In this document: positions 3,199 through 37,666 of the stretch, piece by piece | Numbering within the stretch: the stretch's first letter is position 1 | Layout: each line of letters begins with the position of its first letter | Source of the DNA: Leptonemataceae bacterium | Lineage (GTDB): Bacteria; Spirochaetota; Leptospiria; Leptospirales; Leptonemataceae | DNA: 64,000 nt | Direction of reading: 5' to 3' | Assembly (NCBI GenBank): GCA_965227295.1 | Contig: OZ245742.1 | Coordinates: 4,064,001-4,128,000 of the forward strand | Translations under genes and position numbers: made by a program | The notes under the pieces: model-generated | The model's database searches: none | Told to the model about the DNA's origin: nothing | The model's input: only the letters and a program-made list of their open reading frames with translations

Positions 3199-3356
3199 TT
3201 ACTACTTCCTCCGGGCTTCGCATCCCGAAAGTTTGTCTTGTTACAAGATTGACTAATCCCTTAGTATTACTCCAGAAAACTTTACCGTGTTTACTTTTTA
3301 CGGTTTTTTTCTTGTGATCCGAACGCGCGCGAGTCAGAATTCATCAGAGGTGCGCC

Positions 3357-4379
3357 ATGACTGAAATCATCTCCCGTGAAGAACTCGAGAATCTGCTCGC
3401 CGCCATGCAGGCCGGCGATCCGGCGCGCCACGACACCGGGGAAGGGCCGCGCTCCGAACGCCCGCGGCGGGTGAAACCCTACGACTTTCTGCATCCGGAT
3501 CGTTTTGCCCGGGAGCAACTCAAGACCCTGGAAATGATCCACGAGAACTTTGCCCGCACGGCAAGCGCCGCGCTGTCCGCGCGTCTGCGCAGCATCGTGT
3601 CCATGCGCGTGGTGGACGTCACCCAGGTGAGCTTCGAAGAGTTCGTCCGCCTGGTGCCGAACCCGACGACCCTCGGCATCATCAACATGGAACCGCTGCG
3701 CGGTTCGGCGGTGCTGGAACTCGCACCGGAAATGAGCTTCGCCATTATCGATCGACTCTTCGGCGGCCGCGGCGAACCCGTGAAGCTGCACCGGGAAATC
3801 TCCGACATCGAAATGAACGCCCTCGAAACCGTGATCGTGCGGATGTTAGGCGACCTGCGCGAGTCCTGGGTGCAACTCGTCGATCTGCGGCCGCGCATCG
3901 CGCGCATCGAAACGAATCCGTACTTTACGCAGATCGTTCCGCCCCGGGACATGGCCGTGCTCATTGTCTTCGATACAAAGATCGGCGACATCGAGACGTT
4001 CGTTAACCTGTGCATTCCGTACATTACCATCGAGCCGATCATGAACAAACTCGCGCCGCACGAGTTCTATCGTCAGGGGGAGAGCAGCGGCGGCCACGAG
4101 ACGGCACTGAAAGAACGCCTGGACGAGATGCCCGTGTCGGTGCGTTGTGAAGTGGGCGAGGTGGAATTGCCGCTGAACACCGTGGCCGGCCTGGAAGTCG
4201 GCGACGTGGTGAAGATCGCGTCGACGCACGTGCACGATGACATGACGTTTATGATCGGCGAGCGCGCGAAGTTCAAGTGCCGGCCGGGTAAAATCCGCGG
4301 ACGTTTGTGCGTGCAGATCGGCGAGATGATCGAAGGCGTGCCCGACGAATTCTTGAAGTTCGCCGGGGATGAAGATTGA
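3357..4379 (+). CDS. fliM: Second, divergent FliM paralog
   Basis: Colinear with the upstream FliM (YDFLHPDRF, PNPTTLGIINMEPLRGSAVLE, FGGRG, NLCIPYITIEPI, FKCRPGK). Confidence 0.92.
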   Translation: MTEIISREELENLLAAMQAGDPARHDTGEGPRSERPRRVKPYDFLHPDRFAREQLKTLEMIHENFARTASAALSARLRSIVSMRVVDVTQVSFEEFVRLVPNPTTLGIINMEPLRGSAVLELAPEMSFAIIDRLFGGRGEPVKLHREISDIEMNALETVIVRMLGDLRESWVQLVDLRPRIARIETNPYFTQIVPPRDMAVLIVFDTKIGDIETFVNLCIPYITIEPIMNKLAPHEFYRQGESSGGHETALKERLDEMPVSVRCEVGEVELPLNTVAGLEVGDVVKIASTHVHDDMTFMIGERAKFKCRPGKIRGRLCVQIGEMIEGVPDEFLKFAGDED

Positions 4380-5496
4380 TGCGTCCGCGGTGATACCGTA
4401 CGATGATGGGATGATTTTTGAAAGCATCATCTATCAGAAACTGTTACAGTATGATCTGGTTCGCGCGCGAGTTCTCAAAGATTTTCGCAATCAACAGTAC
4501 GACGTAGAGATCGGCGAGGTCCTTTGCGCAAAACATTGCCTGACCCCGTCCGATCGAAGTCGTAAAATCCGGCTGGTGGGTACACCGGGTTCCTGGGGTT
4601 CGCGAACCCTGTGCAAGGGCGAAGATGTATTTCTGTTTTTGACTACGATTCATGGCTGTTTTTACCAGGATTCCTGGAGAGGTCATCTCATTGTCCGCAA
4701 TGATCGGGTCCTGTCGCAGATCGAAAGCATCGCAGAAGACCTGCATGCGCATACAACCGAGGGCGGCGACGGCCTCTATAGCGTGCCGCTGGCTCTCTTT
4801 GAGGAGCATCTGCGGAAGTGCATCCGTGAGATTGATCACATACCGCGAAGCAACTATCGAATCCCGCTGGGACACGAAAAAAAGTTGGCCGAAGGTCGGG
4901 TCGTGGTCTCCGGTTTCGGAGCTGCAGTCGTAGACATCGTTTCGGCCCTGGAGGCATACGGATGCCGGCGACTGGAAGCGATCGACGCCGGGGAAAGATG
5001 CGATCTAAGCGACGTCGCCTGCGTCGTTTGTCTGCTGGATCCGGACGATGAACGATTCCCGGCCCTGATTGGCAGAGCGCAGCAACACGGCGCACATGTC
5101 ATATTGCTGCTGAATCCAGGCTACGGTTGGGTGTTGCATCATATTCCGAAAGATTCCTGCCCGGCGCGTCTGCCCTGGTGCCGATTTCCGAAACTCAGTC
5201 CAGGGGCCGCGGTATTGCAGGAGATTGTCCGATTCGTAGGCGCGCGGAAAGGCATCCCGGTCTGGCTCCGTCGGGCCGCACGCGACCTGTCACGCGGCCG
5301 CTTACAGTGGAACGCGACGTCCGGCGAGCCTCCCGGCGATTTCATATGTGAGGAAGTACGGAGTGTCCTGTGTACATCGGCCTGGCCCGTGTTTCCAGTT
5401 CCGATCTTTCCTGGCGGCGAACCGTGGGTGAACGAGCATATCCCGCTCCGATTTCTGGGCCGGTTTCGAACCTGGCTCTCCACCGGCGTCTGGTAA
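4369..5496 (+). CDS. Hypothetical protein, probably two domains
   Basis: 375-aa ORF overlapping the fliM2 stop; the 5' half is visibly AT-richer than its flanks. Confidence 0.6.
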   Translation: MKIDASAVIPYDDGMIFESIIYQKLLQYDLVRARVLKDFRNQQYDVEIGEVLCAKHCLTPSDRSRKIRLVGTPGSWGSRTLCKGEDVFLFLTTIHGCFYQDSWRGHLIVRNDRVLSQIESIAEDLHAHTTEGGDGLYSVPLALFEEHLRKCIREIDHIPRSNYRIPLGHEKKLAEGRVVVSGFGAAVVDIVSALEAYGCRRLEAIDAGERCDLSDVACVVCLLDPDDERFPALIGRAQQHGAHVILLLNPGYGWVLHHIPKDSCPARLPWCRFPKLSPGAAVLQEIVRFVGARKGIPVWLRRAARDLSRGRLQWNATSGEPPGDFICEEVRSVLCTSAWPVFPVPIFPGGEPWVNEHIPLRFLGRFRTWLSTGVW

Positions 5497-30284: not shown

Positions 30285-31469
30285 ATGAATTCATTTCAGG
30301 ATGACTTAAAGGTGCACAAGGCGCTATTTATGCGCGGGGCTTCATGCGCTTTCTTCAAACTCCCCGCGTCGATATCCCGCGCTATCCTTCTTCTCTCGTT
30401 GAGTGCGGCATTCGCCTATTGCGGAGGCTCCCCCGTACGCGAGGACTTCCAGAAAATTCAGCGCATACATTTACTCGGTGTAGCAGTTGTCGGCCCTTCG
30501 TATGTTACAGAGGCCTGGCAACCGCCTGCTGCGCCGGGCGATTTCGGCGGCAGTCGATCCCTCACGCAGATGCAGGATATGGCTACGGGGGGGACCGGTG
30601 GTGATACCGGCTTCGTTGACGGTGAGTTACACATTGATTCTGAAAATTACGGTGCGGTCGGTAATTTTCCCGTAAGTGGCACGTGCAAAGACTGCGACCG
30701 GGCCGCCCGCTACCGCATTTCCTTCGCGGCCGCGAGGGCGGCAGCCGGCACCGCCCTGCAGGATCGCCTCTATGCCAATGCATCGGCTCCATTCGTCGAT
30801 GCCGCCAACAGCCGGAAACTAAACGGCTTTCGAAGTGCCCAGGAGCTTCTCGAAAACGCGTTGGGACCCCGAGTTGACCTGCCCGATCCCCTTGCCGCAC
30901 TCAAAAAATACGAAAGCACCATTCAGTCACCGGCCTTTCGGGAATTCATCGCCGCTCATCCCGAAGACGCTTTTGTCTATGTAATGGTTTTTCTTTCGCC
31001 CCGCCTGATTCCGCAAACCATCAGTACGCAGGGTTCGGAACCGGTCCGCGACCCGGCCACGGGACAGCTAACCGACAAATATATCATGAAAATCGATGTG
31101 AATGTCGGTTGGGATTCCCTGGCCTTAAACGCTCGCACACGACCAGACATGCGCTACGGAAACAAGCCTGACACGAATCTTCTGAATCCGGGCAACCAGG
31201 GTTGCCTGCCCACGATCTTCACGATTCGTGATTTTAGTAGCGAACCAGCGAAATTTGGCGGTAGTTCGGCCAAATTCATTTCGGTAAATTGGTTCGACAT
31301 CGCACGCAAAGATGCTCGCCGGAACGTATTTCGCATTCAGGGATCTGTGCGGGGTGGAGACGCAACGACAGACCGCAATTTACGTGCAAGCCTACAGAAC
31401 GTAATGGGCCCGCTGGGTGATGAATTGGTTATCCGACTCAATGACTACATCGCGGCTGTAAGGAATTAG
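30285..31469 (+). CDS. Hypothetical lipoprotein (start uncertain)
   Basis: 394-aa ORF with LLLSLSAAFAYC lipobox-like segment. Confidence 0.7.
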   Translation: MNSFQDDLKVHKALFMRGASCAFFKLPASISRAILLLSLSAAFAYCGGSPVREDFQKIQRIHLLGVAVVGPSYVTEAWQPPAAPGDFGGSRSLTQMQDMATGGTGGDTGFVDGELHIDSENYGAVGNFPVSGTCKDCDRAARYRISFAAARAAAGTALQDRLYANASAPFVDAANSRKLNGFRSAQELLENALGPRVDLPDPLAALKKYESTIQSPAFREFIAAHPEDAFVYVMVFLSPRLIPQTISTQGSEPVRDPATGQLTDKYIMKIDVNVGWDSLALNARTRPDMRYGNKPDTNLLNPGNQGCLPTIFTIRDFSSEPAKFGGSSAKFISVNWFDIARKDARRNVFRIQGSVRGGDATTDRNLRASLQNVMGPLGDELVIRLNDYIAAVRN

Positions 31470-31486
31470 ACAACCGGCTCGACACC

Positions 31487-32258
31487 TGTCATCGGCTACA
31501 TAGTGTGGAAGACCGGCGGCTGGAAAGAGACCCGGCCGCTTATTGTCGAGCTGATCGTCGATGCCCGCGAGAAACACCCGTCGTGGGTGGCACGTTCAGA
31601 AGGTTTTTGAGCGCGTCTTTCAGGAGTTCGGTATGCCCGATGCCATCCGATCCGATAACGGCTCTCCATTTGCGTCTCGCGGTCTTGCGGGACTCACGCC
31701 GTTTGCCGTGTGGTTGTTGAAGTTAGGGATCAGACTGGAACGGATCGAGCCCGGCAAGCCGTATCAAAACGGTCGCCATGAGCGGATGCATCTCACGTTA
31801 AAGCAGCATACGGCATTGCCGCCGCGGTCATCCTTGAAAGCACAACAGGCTGCCTTCGATGCCTTTCGCGAGGAGTACAACGAAGTGCGGCCGCATCATG
31901 CGCTGGATCTGAAAACGCCAGCGAGTTTGTACTGTGAATCGAATCGGGAGTATCCAGGAAAGCTTCCGCCGGTTGAGTATCCGACAAGCATGGAACCGTT
32001 CGTTGTTTCGGACGAAGGAACCATTCGCTATCTGACATACCGCAACCTGGTTTCTTCGTTACGCGGAGAAACAGTGGGTCTTGAGGAAATCTCCGAAAGG
32101 CACAGACGGATACACTTTGCGAACGCGGTGCTCGGAGTGCTGGATGCATACACCGGAAAATTACTTGCATACAAGAACCCCATGACGATAATACAAGAGA
32201 ACCAGGTGTAACCCATCGTCCCGGTTTGATGTGTTACCAATCAGCCAGTTTATTCACA
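31487..32258 (+). mobile_element. Internally deleted IS481-family element
   Basis: TGT...ACA ends; right end carries two GT(A/T)ACC boxes; C-terminal transposase part retained (IRSDNGSPF, PYQNGRHERMH, YNEVRPH); N-terminus reduced to short patches. Confidence 0.8.
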
Positions 32259-32344
32259 AGACGGTCCGGTCCGGTTAGATAGGTAACAAGACATTCCTGG
32301 CACATAGGTAACAGATTTCAGTCTCGACATCGGAGGAAAATCCG

Positions 32345-33541
32345 ATGCCGTGGAAGGAGTCTAATGTGCAGGAAGAAAGAGTTAAGTTCGTTGCCGCGTG
32401 GAAGACCGGCGGCTGGACGATGACCGATCTCTGCCGGGAATTCGGAATCAGCCGAAAGACCGGATACAAGTACCTCGAACGATACCAGGAAGAGGGCGTG
32501 GACGGCCTGAAATGCAAGTCCCGCGCCCGCAAATTCCATCCGAACGCCACCCGCCCGGAGCTGGTGGAACTCATCATCGATATGCGCCAGCAGCATCCTT
32601 CGTGGGGGCCGCGTAAGTTGCTCGCACGTCTGCGCGGTCGCTATCCGAGAATCAAAGACAGCGACTGGCCGTGTCACTCGACGATCTCAGAAATCCTGAA
32701 ACGCGCGGGCCTTGTGCGCCAGGTGAAGAAGCGCCGCCGTGCTCCGCCGACGTTGTTTCCGTTCGCGCACGTCGGCAATCCGAATGATCTCTGGTGCGCG
32801 GATTTCAAAGGTCATTTCACCGTCGGGAACGGCGAGCGCTGCGATCCCTTAACCATCACTGATGCGCACTCACGCTTTCTGCTGGATTGCCGGGCCGTCA
32901 TGGCCACGAACACAAAGAACGTACAGAAGGTCTTCGAGAAAGTCTTTCAGGAATACGGACTGCCGCGAGCCATCCGCACGGACAACGGCTCACCGTTCGC
33001 AGCAACCGCGCTGGGCGGCCTTAGCAGGCTTTCGGTGTGGTGGTTGAAGCTGGGGATCTCGCTGGAGCGCATAGAGCCCGGGAAACCGCAGCAGAACGGC
33101 CGTCACGAGCGTATGCACCTGACTTTGAAGAAAGAGACCGCATTGCCGCCCATGTCGTCTCTGAGGCGCCAGCAGCAGGAATTTGACCGGTTTCGGGAGG
33201 AATACAACGTGGAACGGCCACATGAGGCACTTTCATACCGTGCGCCGGCAGATGTCTACAAGCGCTCTCGCCGGCGTTTCCCGAAGAAGGTGCCGGAACT
33301 GCACTATCCCACGCACATGGAGTCGACGGTGGTCTCGGACGAAGGCACGATCCGGTATGGGATTCACCGGGTGTTTCTGAGTTCTGCGCTCCGGGGCGAG
33401 CGGATCGGGCTGGAGGAAATCGATGAGCGGCACCGGCGGATTAATTTTGCCCACGCCGTGCTGGGGGTGCTGGACGTGTATACTGGAAAAGTCTTGAAGT
33501 ATGATTCGCCGAAGTACGCGCGGGTGGCTTTAGAGAAATAG
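32345..33541 (+). CDS. IS481-family transposase
   Basis: MPWKE, LCREFGISRKTGYKY HTH, WGPRKL, WCADFKG, RTDNG.PF, QNGRHERMH (DDE). Confidence 0.96.
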   Translation: MPWKESNVQEERVKFVAAWKTGGWTMTDLCREFGISRKTGYKYLERYQEEGVDGLKCKSRARKFHPNATRPELVELIIDMRQQHPSWGPRKLLARLRGRYPRIKDSDWPCHSTISEILKRAGLVRQVKKRRRAPPTLFPFAHVGNPNDLWCADFKGHFTVGNGERCDPLTITDAHSRFLLDCRAVMATNTKNVQKVFEKVFQEYGLPRAIRTDNGSPFAATALGGLSRLSVWWLKLGISLERIEPGKPQQNGRHERMHLTLKKETALPPMSSLRRQQQEFDRFREEYNVERPHEALSYRAPADVYKRSRRRFPKKVPELHYPTHMESTVVSDEGTIRYGIHRVFLSSALRGERIGLEEIDERHRRINFAHAVLGVLDVYTGKVLKYDSPKYARVALEK

Positions 33542-33568
33542 GATCTTTCGTATTATACCTTACTAAAC

Positions 33569-33595
33569 AATTCAGCCGGAACAAGCGGCTGAATT
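33569..33595. terminator. 10-bp stem-loop between transposase and passenger gene
   Basis: aattcagccg-gaacaag-cggctgaatt. Confidence 0.45.
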
Positions 33596-33615
33596 CAAAC
33601 GAAAGGAAGCTTTAA

Positions 33616-33885
33616 ATGAAAAAGTACCAACCTATATTTCCGACCGTTACGGTCTTGCTGTCGCTGGATGCTCCGGGAGACAATTCGAGCATCGTAAGGC
33701 GAGTTCTTGAAGATCAAGGCTGGACGCACACAGGTGTTGAATCGACCTACGAAAGTCGATTATACTCGGAACGCGTTGGCGAGGAAGTAAATCGTCATCT
33801 CGATCTGGCCGGAAAAGAACTTGGCCGGAAGATAGTCGATGCCGTCTGGCTACAATCTGATAGTGCGATCATTCGGCGAAGGTAA
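33616..33885 (+). CDS. Small passenger protein, Cas2/VapD-like ferredoxin-fold candidate
   Basis: AAGGA RBS; VLLSLD-helix-GW-xxxx-VESTYE pattern. Confidence 0.6.
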   Translation: MKKYQPIFPTVTVLLSLDAPGDNSSIVRRVLEDQGWTHTGVESTYESRLYSERVGEEVNRHLDLAGKELGRKIVDAVWLQSDSAIIRRR

Positions 33886-33896
33886 GGACTTTGCGA

Positions 33897-33927
33897 GCCG
33901 CAGGTCCCGGGCTACGGGGCCTGCGGC
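33897..33927. terminator. GC-rich hairpin after the passenger gene
   Basis: gccgcaggtccc-gggctac-ggggcctgcggc. Confidence 0.5.
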
Positions 33928-34107
33928 CGTATCCGAAGATCCTCAAGCACAAGAAAGTACTCAGTAAACGCTTCCAATCATGCCGAAGAATGGAATAAGT
34001 AACAGTACGGATCTGTCACCCATGTGACCGGACAGAAGTGTTACCTATGTACCCGACCATACAAAACGGTCCCCACCCCGTGTGACATAAGATAGATTAT
34101 CGGAAGT

Positions 34108-36459
34108 GTGCGACACGAAGTCGCTATCCTGAAGTTCAGGAGACTAAAGTAGAACAAAAGAAGGTTAACCTGATGGCCCAGTGGCGGGCATCATTCCCAA
34201 CCGGCACATGCGAACCCCGGCAACGGATCGTGTGAAGCTGCTGGTAGATCGTAATGGACGTTCCGAACCCCCGGAACCCCTGCGAGCGGGAAAGTCGAAA
34301 ATGGCGAACGAAAGTGAATCTGATCAGCTCCGTTATAATGACCTCGCAATTCGGGGGAATCGGCGAGCTTGCAGACCCGGGAACCCGCGATGCTACCACG
34401 CGGACGCAGCCTCCCCATAGTGTCTGCCGGAGTAAGTGCAGGCGCCTGCCCTCGACGTATCTTCGGATAGTGAAACGTGGTAAGCCCGATGAAGTCCCGT
34501 GCCCTCACGTGCGGGTAAGTCGATCGCAAGAAAGGCCGAACTCTTCAGCGGGTAAAGGATCACCGAAAAAGCAAACGTCCGCAGGTCGAAAGGCCACGGG
34601 AACCCATAACCGGCGGAATAGATCATCTGATCGAGTTGAAAGACTGCTGACTTCGGTGTGGTGGTTCACTGAGTGCATCTGTGAGGCCGACTAAGGATAG
34701 TCGAGTTTTGACGCTGTGAACAACAGTGAAAACAGAATATCCGCGACCGTTTGGAATTCCGTCGATTGGCGGAAGACCGAACGAGAAGTGCGTCGTCTGA
34801 GGCAGAGAATCTACAGAGCCGAAAAATCAGGGAACGCGCGCAAGGTTCGTTCCCTGCAAAAGCTCATGCTGCGAAGCCATTCGAACCGGCTGCTGTCGGT
34901 CAGGCGGGTGACGCAGCATAATCGAGGAAAGAATACGCCGGGCGTCGATAAGCTTCTGGTGAAGACGCCCACACAACGGGCCCGACTGGTTGACTCTTTG
35001 GCTTCTCTGGAGCCATGGAAGCCGGTCCCCGTTCGCAGGGTTTACATTCCGAAGGCGAACGGCAAACGACGACCTCTGGGAATTCCGGTGATACGTGACC
35101 GCGCGCTCCAGGCCGTGGTCAAAAACGCACTGGAGCCCCAATGGGAGGCCCGGTTTGAAGCCTGTTCGTACGGCTTTCGGCCGGGGCGACGTGCTCACGA
35201 TGCCATCACTTTGATTTCCAGACGAATTGCGCGCAGAGCGCACAAACCCTGGGTCATCGATGCGGACATCGAGAGTGCATTTGATCGCATCTCCCATGAT
35301 TTTCTTCTAAAGAAGATTGGAGGTTTTCCGGCACGCGAGCTGGTCAAACAATGGCTCAAAGCCGGAGTCGTCGAAGCGGACGGTCTGCTTGTTCCCACGG
35401 GTGAAGGCACTCCCCAGGGCGGCGTAATCTCGCCCCTGCTCGCCAACATTGCGCTGGACGGCATGGAAGACCTGATTCCGGCCGGACGTCTGGTACGCTA
35501 CGCGGACGATCTAATCGTCTTCTGCAAAACGAGAGCCGAGGCCGAAGCCATCGAAGACATGATGCAATCATGGCTCGGGAAGCGCGGTCTACGGCTCTCG
35601 CCGGAGAAAACACGCATTACGCATGTGACCGAAGGATTCGACTTCTTGGGCTTCCATGTGAGGGTGTTGAGAACTCCGGCCCGCAAACGCAGAAAGGCGA
35701 CGCTGACTCCCGATGTTCGCGACGAATACAAGGTCCGGATCTGGCCCGCGAAAAAAGGCCAACTGGCCTTACGCGGTAAGGTTCGCTCCATTGTTCGTCA
35801 GCATCGGGCCGCTCCCCAGGCGGCGCTGGTTCGAAATCTGACGCCGGTACTTCGCGGCTGGGCCAACTACTACAAGTACTGCTCGGCTACAAAGACCTTC
35901 GCGAAACTGGACCACTACACATGGTGGCTCCTGTGGCGCTGGGCTCTGCACCGACATCCGAAGAAAGGCCGGCGCTGGCTCAAGAAGAGATACTGGGGTC
36001 AATATGCGAAAGGCCGACGGGATCACTGGGTCTTTGGGGAACCGACAGAAAGCGGCTTCGTTCACCTCGCCAAACTGGCCTGGACGAATATCGAACGATA
36101 CCAGATGGTGAAAGGAGACTCCTCCCCCGATGACCCGGATCTGGTTTCGTACTGGGAAGATCGTCGACGCCAGGGTGCTAAAAACCTGCGAGCGTATTTT
36201 AAGATCCTCTATATTCTGCAAAAGGGCCTCTGCCCGCACTGCGGCGGAGAACTGGACAACGGTGAGGAACTTCACCGGCATCACAAGAATCCGCGCTCAG
36301 CAGGCGGAGAAGATGTCTTGCAGAATCTGGAGCTTGTGCACCTGATGTGTCATCAGCAGGTGCATTCAAAGGCGCGAACTGCTTGAGCCGTATGCGGGGA
36401 AACTCGCACGTACGGTTCTTAGAGGGGGTTGGCCCGGAAACGGGCTGACCCTACTCGAC
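34108..36459 (+). mobile_element. Complete group II intron (IIB/chloroplast-like IEP class)
   Basis: 5' GTGCG at 34108; domain V GAGCCGTATGCGGGGAAACTCGCACGTACGGTTC; domain VI with bulged A; ends CTACTCGAC. Confidence 0.93.
34716..36386 (+). CDS. ltrA: Group II intron reverse transcriptase/maturase with HNH endonuclease
   Basis: [74 protein letters not shown]. Confidence 0.97.
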
Positions 36460-36465
36460 CACATT

Positions 36466-37262
36466 TTGCCTCATGATAAAAAGTACTCGTAATCAGCGCT
36501 GTTGCCTCAACTAAATATGTACTCCTGCTATTCCTGATGGAATGGGACTTCCGCATGGGAACCTCCGGAGTACACGATGAGGCTGACCATGAACGAACGA
36601 CGTACCCTGACGAAGGTGTTCGCCGACCGGTACCGTAAGGCCGGGAAAAAAGACAAGATTCTGCTGCTCAATGAGTTTGTCGTACTGACCGGCTACAATC
36701 GCAGCTACGCCACCCGCGCGCTCAGAGACTTCAAGCCCGTGCGCGCCGTTCGTAAGAAACGACCCTCGCGTGTCGTCTATGACTCCGACGTGCGGCTGGC
36801 ACTGGAGAAGATCTGGACAGTGCTCGATTATGTCTGCGGCAAACGCCTTGTGGCCGTTTTACCCGAGGTACTCGAAAAGCTGATCGCCCTCGATGAGATC
36901 AAAGTCTCGCGCGATGTGAAAGCAAAGCTCGTGCGTATCTCTGCGGCCACCGCCGACCGCCTGCTTGCCGGCGCCCGGGATCGGCTCGGCCCCTGCCGTG
37001 ATTCGCCGCAACGTCGGCTACTTTCGCTACGAAGAGGCCCACCGGAAAATCCTCGCCGAACTTTATGACAACCTGAACCTGTATGCGAATTTCTTTCAGC
37101 CGATTATGATGCCAACGGTGAGCAATACCGCCCCCGGCCGCCGGGCGCCTCGACGATACCACGAAGGCCGCGAACACTTTCATGGACCGCGTGCGACTGC
37201 AGCGGCTGAAGAGCGACATGCAAAAACTCTGGGATCGCCGCGCCGCGGCTGACCTTTCGAGT
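36466..37262 (+). pseudogene. Eroded transposase/integrase element (ISNCY-like) lacking its catalytic core
   Basis: N-terminus MRLTMNERR..RYRKAGKKDK..TGYNRSYA..CGKRL..ISAATADRLL; frameshifted C-terminal patch VGYFRYE..LNLYANFFQP; two ttgcctca..gtactc end boxes at 36466 and 36502. Confidence 0.75.
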
Positions 37263-37343
37263 GTGCGACACGAAGTCGCTATCCTTTGGCCCGGTGGCGG
37301 GCATCATTCCCAACCGGCACATGCGAACTCCGGCAACGGATCG
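37263..37343 (+). mobile_element. 5' fragment of the same group II intron
   Basis: gtgcgacacgaagtcgctatcct is identical to 34108-34130; the rest nearly matches 34174-34230 after a ~40-nt internal gap. Confidence 0.9.
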
Positions 37344-37666
37344 ATCCGATACCGGCGACATCAGCTCGATGACGCAGGATATTTCAGGGGCCATCATAAA
37401 TTGATGGAGGCGCCTCGGCTTTCCCACCGCGGGTGGTACGAGACTGCGCTTCGAAGTCAGCCTCATGTCTTCCGACGCGAAACTCCGGCCGCTGCTAACG
37501 CTCAACAATCTACACCTTTCGCTCAAAGATATCGCGGATCCCTCTCCCGGGTTGATTTTCCCGCGGCTTTGCCAAAAAAAACTTGCTCGCAGCCCCGAGT
37601 TCACAGCCTGCTCATCCCTCCGAAAACGCCACGTTTCGGCCGCGGCAGCGCGCTAACTGTATTCTA

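Follow-up and report, generated by a model that had tools for sequence, protein, structure and literature searches.

In the 64,000-nucleotide stretch of DNA analysed here (contig OZ245742.1, positions 4,064,001 to 4,128,000 of the forward strand; Leptonemataceae bacterium, assembly GCA_965227295.1; hereafter the window), an insertion sequence (IS) of the IS481 family, IS-A, lies beside a putative dif, the site of chromosome-dimer resolution, and the clade to which it belongs probably selects dif as its target, on the side of the XerD-type arm and with the right end of the element 16–18 nt away. We read IS-A as an intact, single-copy IS481-family insertion sequence that holds passenger DNA between its transposase gene and its right end, and we give this explanation as a whole a probability of roughly 0.7. 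An initial annotation, made from the letters of the window alone, had drawn attention to an 89-residue open reading frame (ORF) inside the element, ORF89, as a Cas2/VapD-like passenger gene; it is the address of IS-A, not the Cas2-like cargo, that we consider the result worth keeping. In one Leptospira genome the clade has this placement on both chromosomes and also on a third contig, and the arm that it uses is opposite to that of the only IS family reported for Xer sites in the accessible parts of the literature.

Evidence for the placement comes from a count of distinct clade copies whose transposase identity is 54% or more and which have 150 nt or more of DNA downstream. A full dif-like site lies downstream in 19 of 36 such copies, compared with 1 of 104 more distant relatives and 1 of 34 in an upstream control. 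Throughout the 22 loci listed, the outer subrepeat of the right end begins 41–43 nt before the dif-like site, and the right end of the clade stands 16–18 nt from dif in a constant orientation, IS-A itself at 16 nt; in distant loci the spacers are completely different while the distance is retained. At least six loci, judged by eye, have an IS481 copy and dif without any IS1202-type DNA, so the placement is independent of IS-B, the IS1202-type remnant on the far side of the site in the window. As a mechanism, the clade transposase would choose dif as its target site, docking the right end 16–18 nt from the XerD-type arm.

We therefore call the site next to IS-A a putative dif, with its XerD-type arm facing the element, because of its uniqueness, its relation to the skew maximum, the Xer genes of the genome, a survey of the motif, its occurrence once per contig, the XerD-like letters of one arm and the position of the IS1202-type IS-B 5 nt from the other, the published distance for such elements. 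A search of the genome allowing up to four substitutions over 18 fixed letters leaves the 28-bp site unique, in that the 12 other places found need exactly four. The cumulative GC-skew maximum falls at window position 36444 (skew +0.0235 before, −0.024 after), 2.3 kb from the dif-like site, a distance accounted for by an inserted intron, and the genome encodes XerD (373 bits, above the cut-off) together with a second Xer paralogue. Of 156 Leptospirales genomes, 139 contain the motif, usually in one to three copies, its arms conserved and its centre variable, and the reversed pattern, used as a control, gave zero in all but one genome; in two Leptospira genomes it occurs once per contig, on all three contigs of G041 and on two of three in G047. 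Read as its reverse complement, the left arm opens with TTATGT, like the XerD consensus TTATGTTAAAT printed in the accessible part of PMC10132070, which our XerC and XerD arm names also follow.

Some genomes hold several dif-like sites. The sister genome G001 has three (L252, L257 and L260), with identical left flanks, consisting of an older IS end, the spacer and the XerD-type arm, and with differing centres and right flanks. Eight are present in G075, several with the same centre and merely 2.6–4.3 kb apart. Such multiplicity looks like Xer-mediated shuffling or dif-module-like cassettes.

The limits that the initial annotation had given to the IS481 element are right to within a base, and its two-part inverted ends, 49–53 nt long, do pair. 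The transposase scores 236 bits against the NCBIfam IS481 equivalog NF033577 (cut-off 224) and matches rve, rve_3 and LZ_Tnp_IS481 in Pfam, with a putative DDE triad of D153, D213 and E255 assigned by position in the rve match. A repeat search paired inverted arms of 45 nt at 76% complementarity (32272–32316 with 34011–34055), which gapped alignment lengthens to 32268–32316 against 34011–34058; each end contains two direct subrepeats of ATAGGTAACA type, which are likely candidates for transposase-binding sites. The left limit is supported by a same-genus element in G001 that opens with the identical letters GGTCC and by a read-set contig whose match begins at 32263, and the right limit by a contig of a third read set that matches through 34063 and then continues into unlike DNA. 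At its termini, the right end closes with ACA, and the left end opens with GGT, as does the G001 relative, versus TGT in the family.

IS-A is single-copy in its own genome, in which no second copy of its hairpins, ends, spacer or cargo was found elsewhere. The nearest of 61 relatives share 67–68% DNA identity with it, and no relative closer than 68% was present in 401 genomes of the phylum; at the protein level, the best transposase matches reach 66% amino acid identity in genome contigs and 65% in metagenome contigs. Its right end had no match in viral contigs.

Comparison with G001 supports an insertion at this place. In that genome, which lacks IS-A here, the right end of an older IS481-type copy (IS-A′ in the window) is joined straight to the spacer and the Xer-type site, and removing IS-A plus one AAGAC/AAAAC copy from the window restores that arrangement. 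IS-A is therefore an insertion relative to the G001 arrangement, and ORF89 lies within it. The flanking duplication, AAGAC/AAAAC, is alike at four of five positions, or at three of four (AGAC/AAAC) if the element ends at 34063; a target duplication of 12–17 nt, equal to the spacer, is absent from 21 loci and from the window. We rejected an apparent 12-nt duplication (32256–67 and 34061–72), given that GGTCC is IS-A's own left end, as in G001, and that contigs fix the limits at 32263 and 34063. Likewise rejected was 34039–34063 as the left end of a downstream element, the outer subrepeat there matching IS-A's own left end; the equivalent subrepeat of the G001 locus matches the older copy's left end. 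The right end of IS-A stands at the canonical distance of the clade from dif, and the whole 1.8-kb unit is thus bounded by ends of a working type.

IS-A is the dif-proximal of two stacked IS481-type copies at the replication terminus and, by analogy with stacked IS1202-family copies, would be the younger of the two; in tandem copies of the IS1202 family, the site-proximal one has been inferred to be the last arrival (Siguier and co-workers, bioRxiv 10.1101/2022.12.17.520857, accessible part).

Read set X1, the likely source of the assembly, also contains a 7347-nt contig that departs from the older IS copy at 32257 and returns at 34084 with three mismatches, placing 7275 other letters between its matches at 32228–32257 and 34084–34110, at a depth of 114 versus 222 for the IS-A path. 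The assembled genome has no second copy of 32045–32257. The contig may derive from a different arrangement of this region, from another replicon or from another strain in the same sample.

Inside the element, the stop codon of the transposase is separated from the right end by 522 nt, in agreement with the earlier estimate of about 520 nt. Most of this DNA forms a 3′ slot which is, most likely, passenger DNA taken into a site that is variable among close relatives. The G+C content of 33517–33908 is 49.0%, compared with 58.5% for 32263–33516 and 59.8% for the genome, and the last 8–10 codons of the transposase diverge from the clade, whose members end in a Y.NPM.I pattern. In 17 of the 22 related loci, the partner that pairs best as an inverted repeat finishes 22–98 nt past the transposase stop; of the other five, two have no downstream DNA, and three give weak pairs and, by eye, have right-end repeats of the clade type less than about 100 nt past the stop. 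Among relatives that reach up to 68% DNA identity, the 522 nt of IS-A therefore stands out as exceptional.

Contigs of another read set, X3, which are 90–95% identical to IS-A, match 32263–33516 and 33909–34063 with unlike DNA between. One of them, 653 nt long, runs through 33262–33516, then about 367 unlike letters, then 33965–33994, and another has 233 unlike letters ahead of 33909; we read this as slot content that probably differs among close relatives of IS-A. The slot DNA had no match in the 156 Leptospirales genomes or elsewhere in its own genome. A same-genus relative in G001 (L119, G001:C1:150000-160000, reverse complement 3222–4616) lies inside an older IS copy and not at dif. Its right ends are arranged in tandem (stop codon, first right end, 24 nt, second right end), with the outer one bounding the element, so DNA between the transposase and a farther end does arise in this lineage.

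ORF89 sits in this slot as the initial annotation described it, with a ribosome-binding site (AAGGAAG, 6 nt 5′ of the ATG) and between two hairpins that none of 200 shuffled sequences equalled in folding; the G+C-rich hairpin on its 3′ side (33897–33927) was not called as a terminator, and Rfam returned nothing on the cargo at E ≤ 0.1. Three promoter-like sites occur in the region, compared with 0.9 ± 0.9 in shuffles, and ORF89 would be read from its own promoter-like site and ribosome-binding site. No RNA data set was listed as containing the stretch, and a run from another study under the same species label gave no match to it, which by the tool's own note does not prove absence. The G+C contents of its first, second and third codon positions (GC1, GC2 and GC3) are 0.60, 0.41 and 0.48, its GC3 of 0.478 standing against 0.729 for the transposase. 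A protein language model gives it a recognition score of 2626 (mark 2300), within a range that, by the tool's own figures, is reached by 91 of 100 real proteins and 9 of 100 shuffled or reversed sequences, and its best score in the ESM Atlas is 0.81, to unnamed clusters.

Homology searches with ORF89 returned little beyond the query. A word-indexed search of 5.8 billion clustered proteins found only ORF89 itself, and a HMMER scan of 1.84 billion representatives found itself and one 1027-aa protein (E 1.5e-5 over 33 residues), which we took as spurious, this protein being repetitive and matching many unrelated Pfam models. No relative was detected in metagenome contigs, in phages by tblastn, or by six-frame searches of the 156 Leptospirales genomes and 242 fetched loci (861,698 bases), and plasmids gave one match at E 0.7; no family model matched in Pfam, PADLOC or PHROGs (E up to 10) or in NCBIfam (E up to 0.001). 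A 97-aa orphan ORF in G030 (L120, G030:C228, 71–361, minus strand) shares a scattered pattern, GW....ES.Y.S...V..HLD...KEL, with ORF89. It was dropped at 37% identity over 54 aa (pairwise E 2e-6, E 0.037 per genome), which is insignificant across 156 genomes, and it has neither relatives nor a Pfam family of its own; a similar weak lead, a 57-aa ORF in G046, was dropped as insignificant on the same scale. We put the odds that ORF89 encodes a real protein at about even. It is most likely unneeded for transposition or dif targeting, because clade members without it have the same placement.

The claim that IS-A is a transporter IS stands in part: the ORF does lie inside the inverted ends, but its co-mobility with them is not seen, the cargo being present once in the genome and in none of the collections searched. 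The initial annotation had also allowed that other copies might end right after the transposase and leave the ORF as chromosomal sequence. Copies elsewhere, with DNA identity of up to 68%, indeed end just past the transposase; ORF89, however, is not chromosomal flank, because it lies between the ends of IS-A and G001 has the same site without IS-A.

Several observations count against our reading. The function of dif and the targeting by the transposase are both deduced from position only, and 17 of the 36 clade copies are not beside a recognisable site. The duplication flanking IS-A is short and imperfect (3/4 or 4/5), and the presence of GGTCC both in the first bases of the element and in the spacer blurs the exact junction. 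Variation of the slot is seen in one foreign read set, whose reads were placed at 85% likeness and whose joint has 30 nt on the shorter side, with slot letters known only as unlike, and there is one copy only with this cargo, which could have entered after the insertion. As for ORF89, no library searched contains a homologue, and the chance of an ORF of at least 89 aa in a 461-nt stretch is 4.5% (ATG only) to 10.7% (any start) in 5000 first-order simulations at the composition of the stretch, which makes ORF89 by itself only weakly significant. Its host-codon score is 0.005 bits per codon, compared with 0.228 for the transposase and 0.052 for its own reverse frame.

These last figures bear on the best-surviving alternative, in which the 3′ stretch is non-coding filler and ORF89 a chance ORF, the DNA having been gained or reshuffled at the right end, for example through a more distant right end. 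We consider this a serious contender, with a probability somewhat below one half. The simulated probability, the failure to find homologues anywhere and a codon score that does not exceed the one for the reverse frame all suit it, as do the tandem right ends of the G001 element, the outer one bounding, and the filling of the slot with unlike DNA in close relatives. Chance would, on the other hand, have had to supply a correctly spaced ribosome-binding site with a promoter-like site just 5′ of it, codon positions in the order GC1 > GC3 > GC2 that is typical of coding DNA, a language-model score within the range of real proteins, and an ORF that takes up 270 of the approximately 390 foreign bases with two strong hairpins around it.

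A second alternative has the cargo entering a resident IS-A after landing, by secondary insertion or recombination, and never being mobile with the IS. This is unlikely in our view. With one copy, there is no second site displaying co-mobility; GGATCT occurs at both edges of the stretch (33541–46 and 34008–13), and the breakpoints fall within the last codons of the transposase and in a hairpin, all of which would fit late entry. The X3 relatives, however, come from another organism and also have about 367 unlike nucleotides at this place, which makes a filled slot a feature of the lineage, and the surroundings of the stretch show neither repeats nor the ends of another mobile element. Passenger DNA in a variable slot is the reading that we retain for the 3′ part of IS-A.

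The placement at dif could also have been inherited from one ancient Leptospirales insertion by vertical descent, with the copies diverging along with their hosts. The spacer is alike in the window, G001, G002 and G007, which makes part of the pattern shared ancestry, and related genomes are non-independent samples. Against this stands the distribution of the copies. Among the 27 first-listed dif sites of the window's family, 22 have no IS481 end, two are flagged as having one by rule (one of them the window) and three by eye; such naked sites are common, and the dif site is therefore not part of the element. Copies occur at sites on three contigs, presumably three replicons, of one genome, and on contigs C2 and C3 of G041 two different end types adjoin identical native flank. 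In tandem stacks the intact copy lies nearest dif, as in targeted IS1202-family insertions, and the distance to the site is kept across distant spacers that are wholly different. At 12 sites in five genomes, an IS481-type end was found eight times by a simple rule and twice more by eye, with one remnant and one site having none. Vertical inheritance, improbable as a general account, accounts for some of the pattern in the window's own genus but falls short of the whole, and selection of dif by the clade remains the explanation that we prefer.

Some dif sites that lack a full IS481 copy (L259, G047:C2, and L266, G010:C1) retain, at the customary spacing, the last 12–20 nt of a right end of IS481 type, which suggests deletion of old IS481 copies up to their tips.

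A more far-reaching proposal, for which we see very little prospect, would combine a second independent dif-seeking IS family having an exchangeable 3′ slot with ORF89 as a protein of a new family acting at dif, for instance by modulating XerD/FtsK or by blocking insertions, or as a small defence or toxin gene; the dif-seeking part, taken alone, we hold to be probable.

ORF89 is not detectably Cas2/VapD-like, judging from its sequence, and the initial annotation of it as a stand-alone ferredoxin-fold nuclease, acting as a toxin, a defence gene or a transposase accessory, found no support in profiles. Against an alignment of 20 Cas2 domains of Leptospirales genomes (A1), hhalign gives a probability of 0.2% over eight columns, and an unfiltered Cas2 hidden Markov model (HMM) scores −1.4 bits, which 1070 of 2000 shuffles of ORF89 equal or better; the motif parallel that had been proposed is thus not above chance. 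Pfam, PADLOC, PHROGs and NCBIfam are empty, as noted above, and the sole sequence match in the Protein Data Bank (PDB) is a coat protein at E 0.075. A single-sequence AlphaFold model is unusable (mean predicted local distance difference test score, pLDDT, 43.9) and too poor to decide the fold; Foldseek with this model found no PDB match at E ≤ 0.001, and its top rows are methyltransferases and nucleoside diphosphate kinases at template modelling (TM) scores of 0.22–0.31, to be read with the unreliability of the model. The echo of a Cas1-Cas2 pairing that had been seen in the neighbouring DDE integrase is not borne out either, no Cas2 match being present anywhere in the genome.

What likeness there is to Cas2/VapD (PF09827) lies in a comparable size, a loosely similar order of strands and helices and a few motif letters seen by eye, set against the absence of statistical similarity, of a confident fold and of cas genes in the genome. 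The predicted order of strand, helix, strand, helix, helix and strand, of low confidence, would loosely fit a sandwich of the alpha/beta type; inspection by eye finds a hydrophobic strand with D as its last residue, followed by G, S-x-Y-E and D-S-x-x-I in the column order of Cas2; and the only stretch that hhalign aligned is LQSDSAII, against the DS..I strand of Cas2. In a by-eye register without statistical support, the invariant Cas2 columns Y7, D8, Q29, S31, F33 and D58 correspond to L, D, E, S, Y and D in ORF89, leaving two unmatched (Y7 and Q29) and one conservative. With the profile score at the level of shuffles, two invariant residues unmatched and a genome that lacks Cas2, we regard a Cas2/VapD-like nuclease as extremely improbable.

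The surroundings of the site, 31.5–37.3 kb of the window, form a nest of mobile DNA consisting of IS-A′, IS-A, the spacer, dif, a group II intron and the IS-B remnant (Table 1). IS-A′ lies outside IS-A, farther from dif, and is separated from it by the 5-nt repeat. Its transposase is 65% identical in amino acids to residues 177–390 of the IS-A transposase, with one internal TGA, and has a partial NCBIfam IS481 match of 97.5 bits; its right-end repeat (32207–32241) stands directly at the stop codon, and it shares 76% DNA identity with a full copy in G001. Just upstream of the IS stack lies a 394-aa ORF without a Pfam family (30285–31469).

The intron, whose 3′ end matches the Rfam model Intron_gpII at 36383–36459 (65.9 bits), has its insertion point directly after the final base of the XerC-type arm and directly before the 5-nt spacer of IS-B, and the intron-less form of the site is found in G001 and G002. 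The 5′ part of a second intron copy begins at 37262 within IS-B (37262–37345), with 23 identical nucleotides followed by 57 nt at 96%, and two intron relatives at 69% identity occur elsewhere in the genome. With the intron removed, the left end of IS-B lies 5 nt from the XerC-type arm. Five variable nucleotides followed by a conserved left end are found in the window, G001, G002, G007 and several Leptospira loci. IS-B shares 76% DNA identity with an intact copy in G001, and the 450-aa rve protein encoded there is only distantly like IS481. The NCBIfam IS481 match stops at 56 bits (cut-off 224), Pfam gives rve, and the IS1202 label of IS-B follows the position rule of the ISAba32/ISAjo2 subgroup, which its place relative to the XerC-type arm fits.

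Table 1 Features of the mobile DNA around the dif-like site, in window coordinates.
Feature	Position	Strand	Basis
IS-A′, older IS481-type copy, 5′-truncated; transposase fragment 31561..32211, right end ~32257	31561..32257	+	Pfam rve_3/rve
Left copy of short imperfect target duplication (AAGAC)	32258..32262	.	Comparison with 34063–34067 (AAAAC); G001 empty site
IS-A, intact IS481-family element	32263..34063 (1801 bp, ends ±1)	+	Inverted ends; single copy; G001 and read-set contigs
Left inverted repeat, two subrepeats	32263..32316	+	Repeat search, gapped alignment
DDE transposase, 398 aa, motifs CAD(153)F / RTD(213)NG / NGRHE(255)R	32345..33541	+	ORF call, Pfam, NCBIfam
Foreign 3′ slot, beginning within the last 8–10 transposase codons	33517..33908	+	GC, C-terminus, X3 contigs
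Promoter-like site (TTTAGA, 16 nt, TATTAT) 5′ of ORF89	33529..33556	+	Consensus match only, 9/12 positions
Upstream hairpin, 10-bp stem; outer stem pairs with bases just before the ribosome-binding site	33569..33595	+	z −4.54
ORF89, orphan 89-aa ORF, possible passenger gene	33616..33885	+	ORF call, searches
G+C-rich hairpin, 13-bp stem, 5-nt loop, without T run	33897..33927	+	z −4.95
3′ segment common to close relatives of IS-A	33909..34010	+	Contigs from read sets X3 (33909 onward) and X7 (33917 onward)
Right inverted repeat, two subrepeats	34011..34063	+	Repeat search, gapped alignment
Spacer from IS-A to dif, 16 nt (right duplication copy + 12 nt)	34064..34079	.	Sequence comparison
dif-like Xer site: XerD-type arm 34080–34090, centre 34091–34096, XerC-type arm 34097–34107	34080..34107	.	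Uniqueness, GC skew, motif survey
Group II intron; reverse transcriptase-maturase-HNH ORF 34716..36386	34108..36462	+	Pfam RVT_1, RVT_N, GIIM, HNH
IS-B remnant, IS1202-type; transposase fragment 36577..37068; cut by second intron fragment from 37262	36463..37261	+	G001 comparison

If the placement reflects targeting, targeting of Xer sites has evolved two or more times among related DDE transposases, and the clade would offer a second system for studying how a transposase finds a recombinase site. It would also explain why mobile DNA has piled up at the terminus in these genomes and give annotators of Leptospira and its relatives a simple landmark for dif, and the variable 3′ slot would be a way of parking small genes beside dif.

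As a cargo-carrying IS481 element, IS-A belongs to a kind already known and is unremarkable within it; as an example of that kind it is weak, its cargo being seen in one copy. Published IS481 elements with passengers include ISArsp12 and ISPfr21, which carry an ArsR regulator and a permease (PMC6305408), and TnRErm46/ISRe46 of Rhodococcus equi, an IS481-type element with cargo, many insertion sites and a 6-bp duplication (PMC6794481), as far as the accessible parts of these papers describe them. IS-A shares with them an IS481-type DDE transposase and extra DNA inside terminal inverted repeats, and its long two-part repeats of about 50 nt also have a counterpart in ISArsp8 (Table 3 of PMC6305408). 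It differs in that its slot holds one orphan 89-aa ORF in one copy, whereas the examples described in those parts carry recognisable genes.

Its address has a parallel in the ISAba32/ISAjo2 subgroup of IS1202, which, according to the accessible parts of bioRxiv 10.1101/2022.12.17.520857 and PMC10132070, targets dif and the plasmid xrs/pdif sites with its left end 5–6 bp away from the XerC arm, always oriented alike and with a duplication of about 5 bp. In both groups the distance and orientation to the Xer site are fixed, on chromosomal dif and on other replicons, successive insertions are stacked, and the duplication, imperfect at IS-A, is short. IS481 appears merely as a distant relative in the accessible part of the bioRxiv article, is absent from the main text of PMC10132070, and has its lone mention in the accessible part of PMC12907356 as a passenger of a dif module. 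Targeting of dif by an IS481 clade, on the XerD side, thus appears to be new, the literature found naming IS1202 only, although its supplementary insertion lists may hold exceptions. Relative to ISAba32/ISAjo2 as described in those sources, IS-A is a true IS481-family member, above the NCBIfam cut-off, and not an IS1202 element; it lies on the side of the XerD arm instead of the XerC arm, its right, transposase-distal end faces the site where theirs is the left end, and its clade stands 16–18 nt from the site where they stand 5–6 nt.

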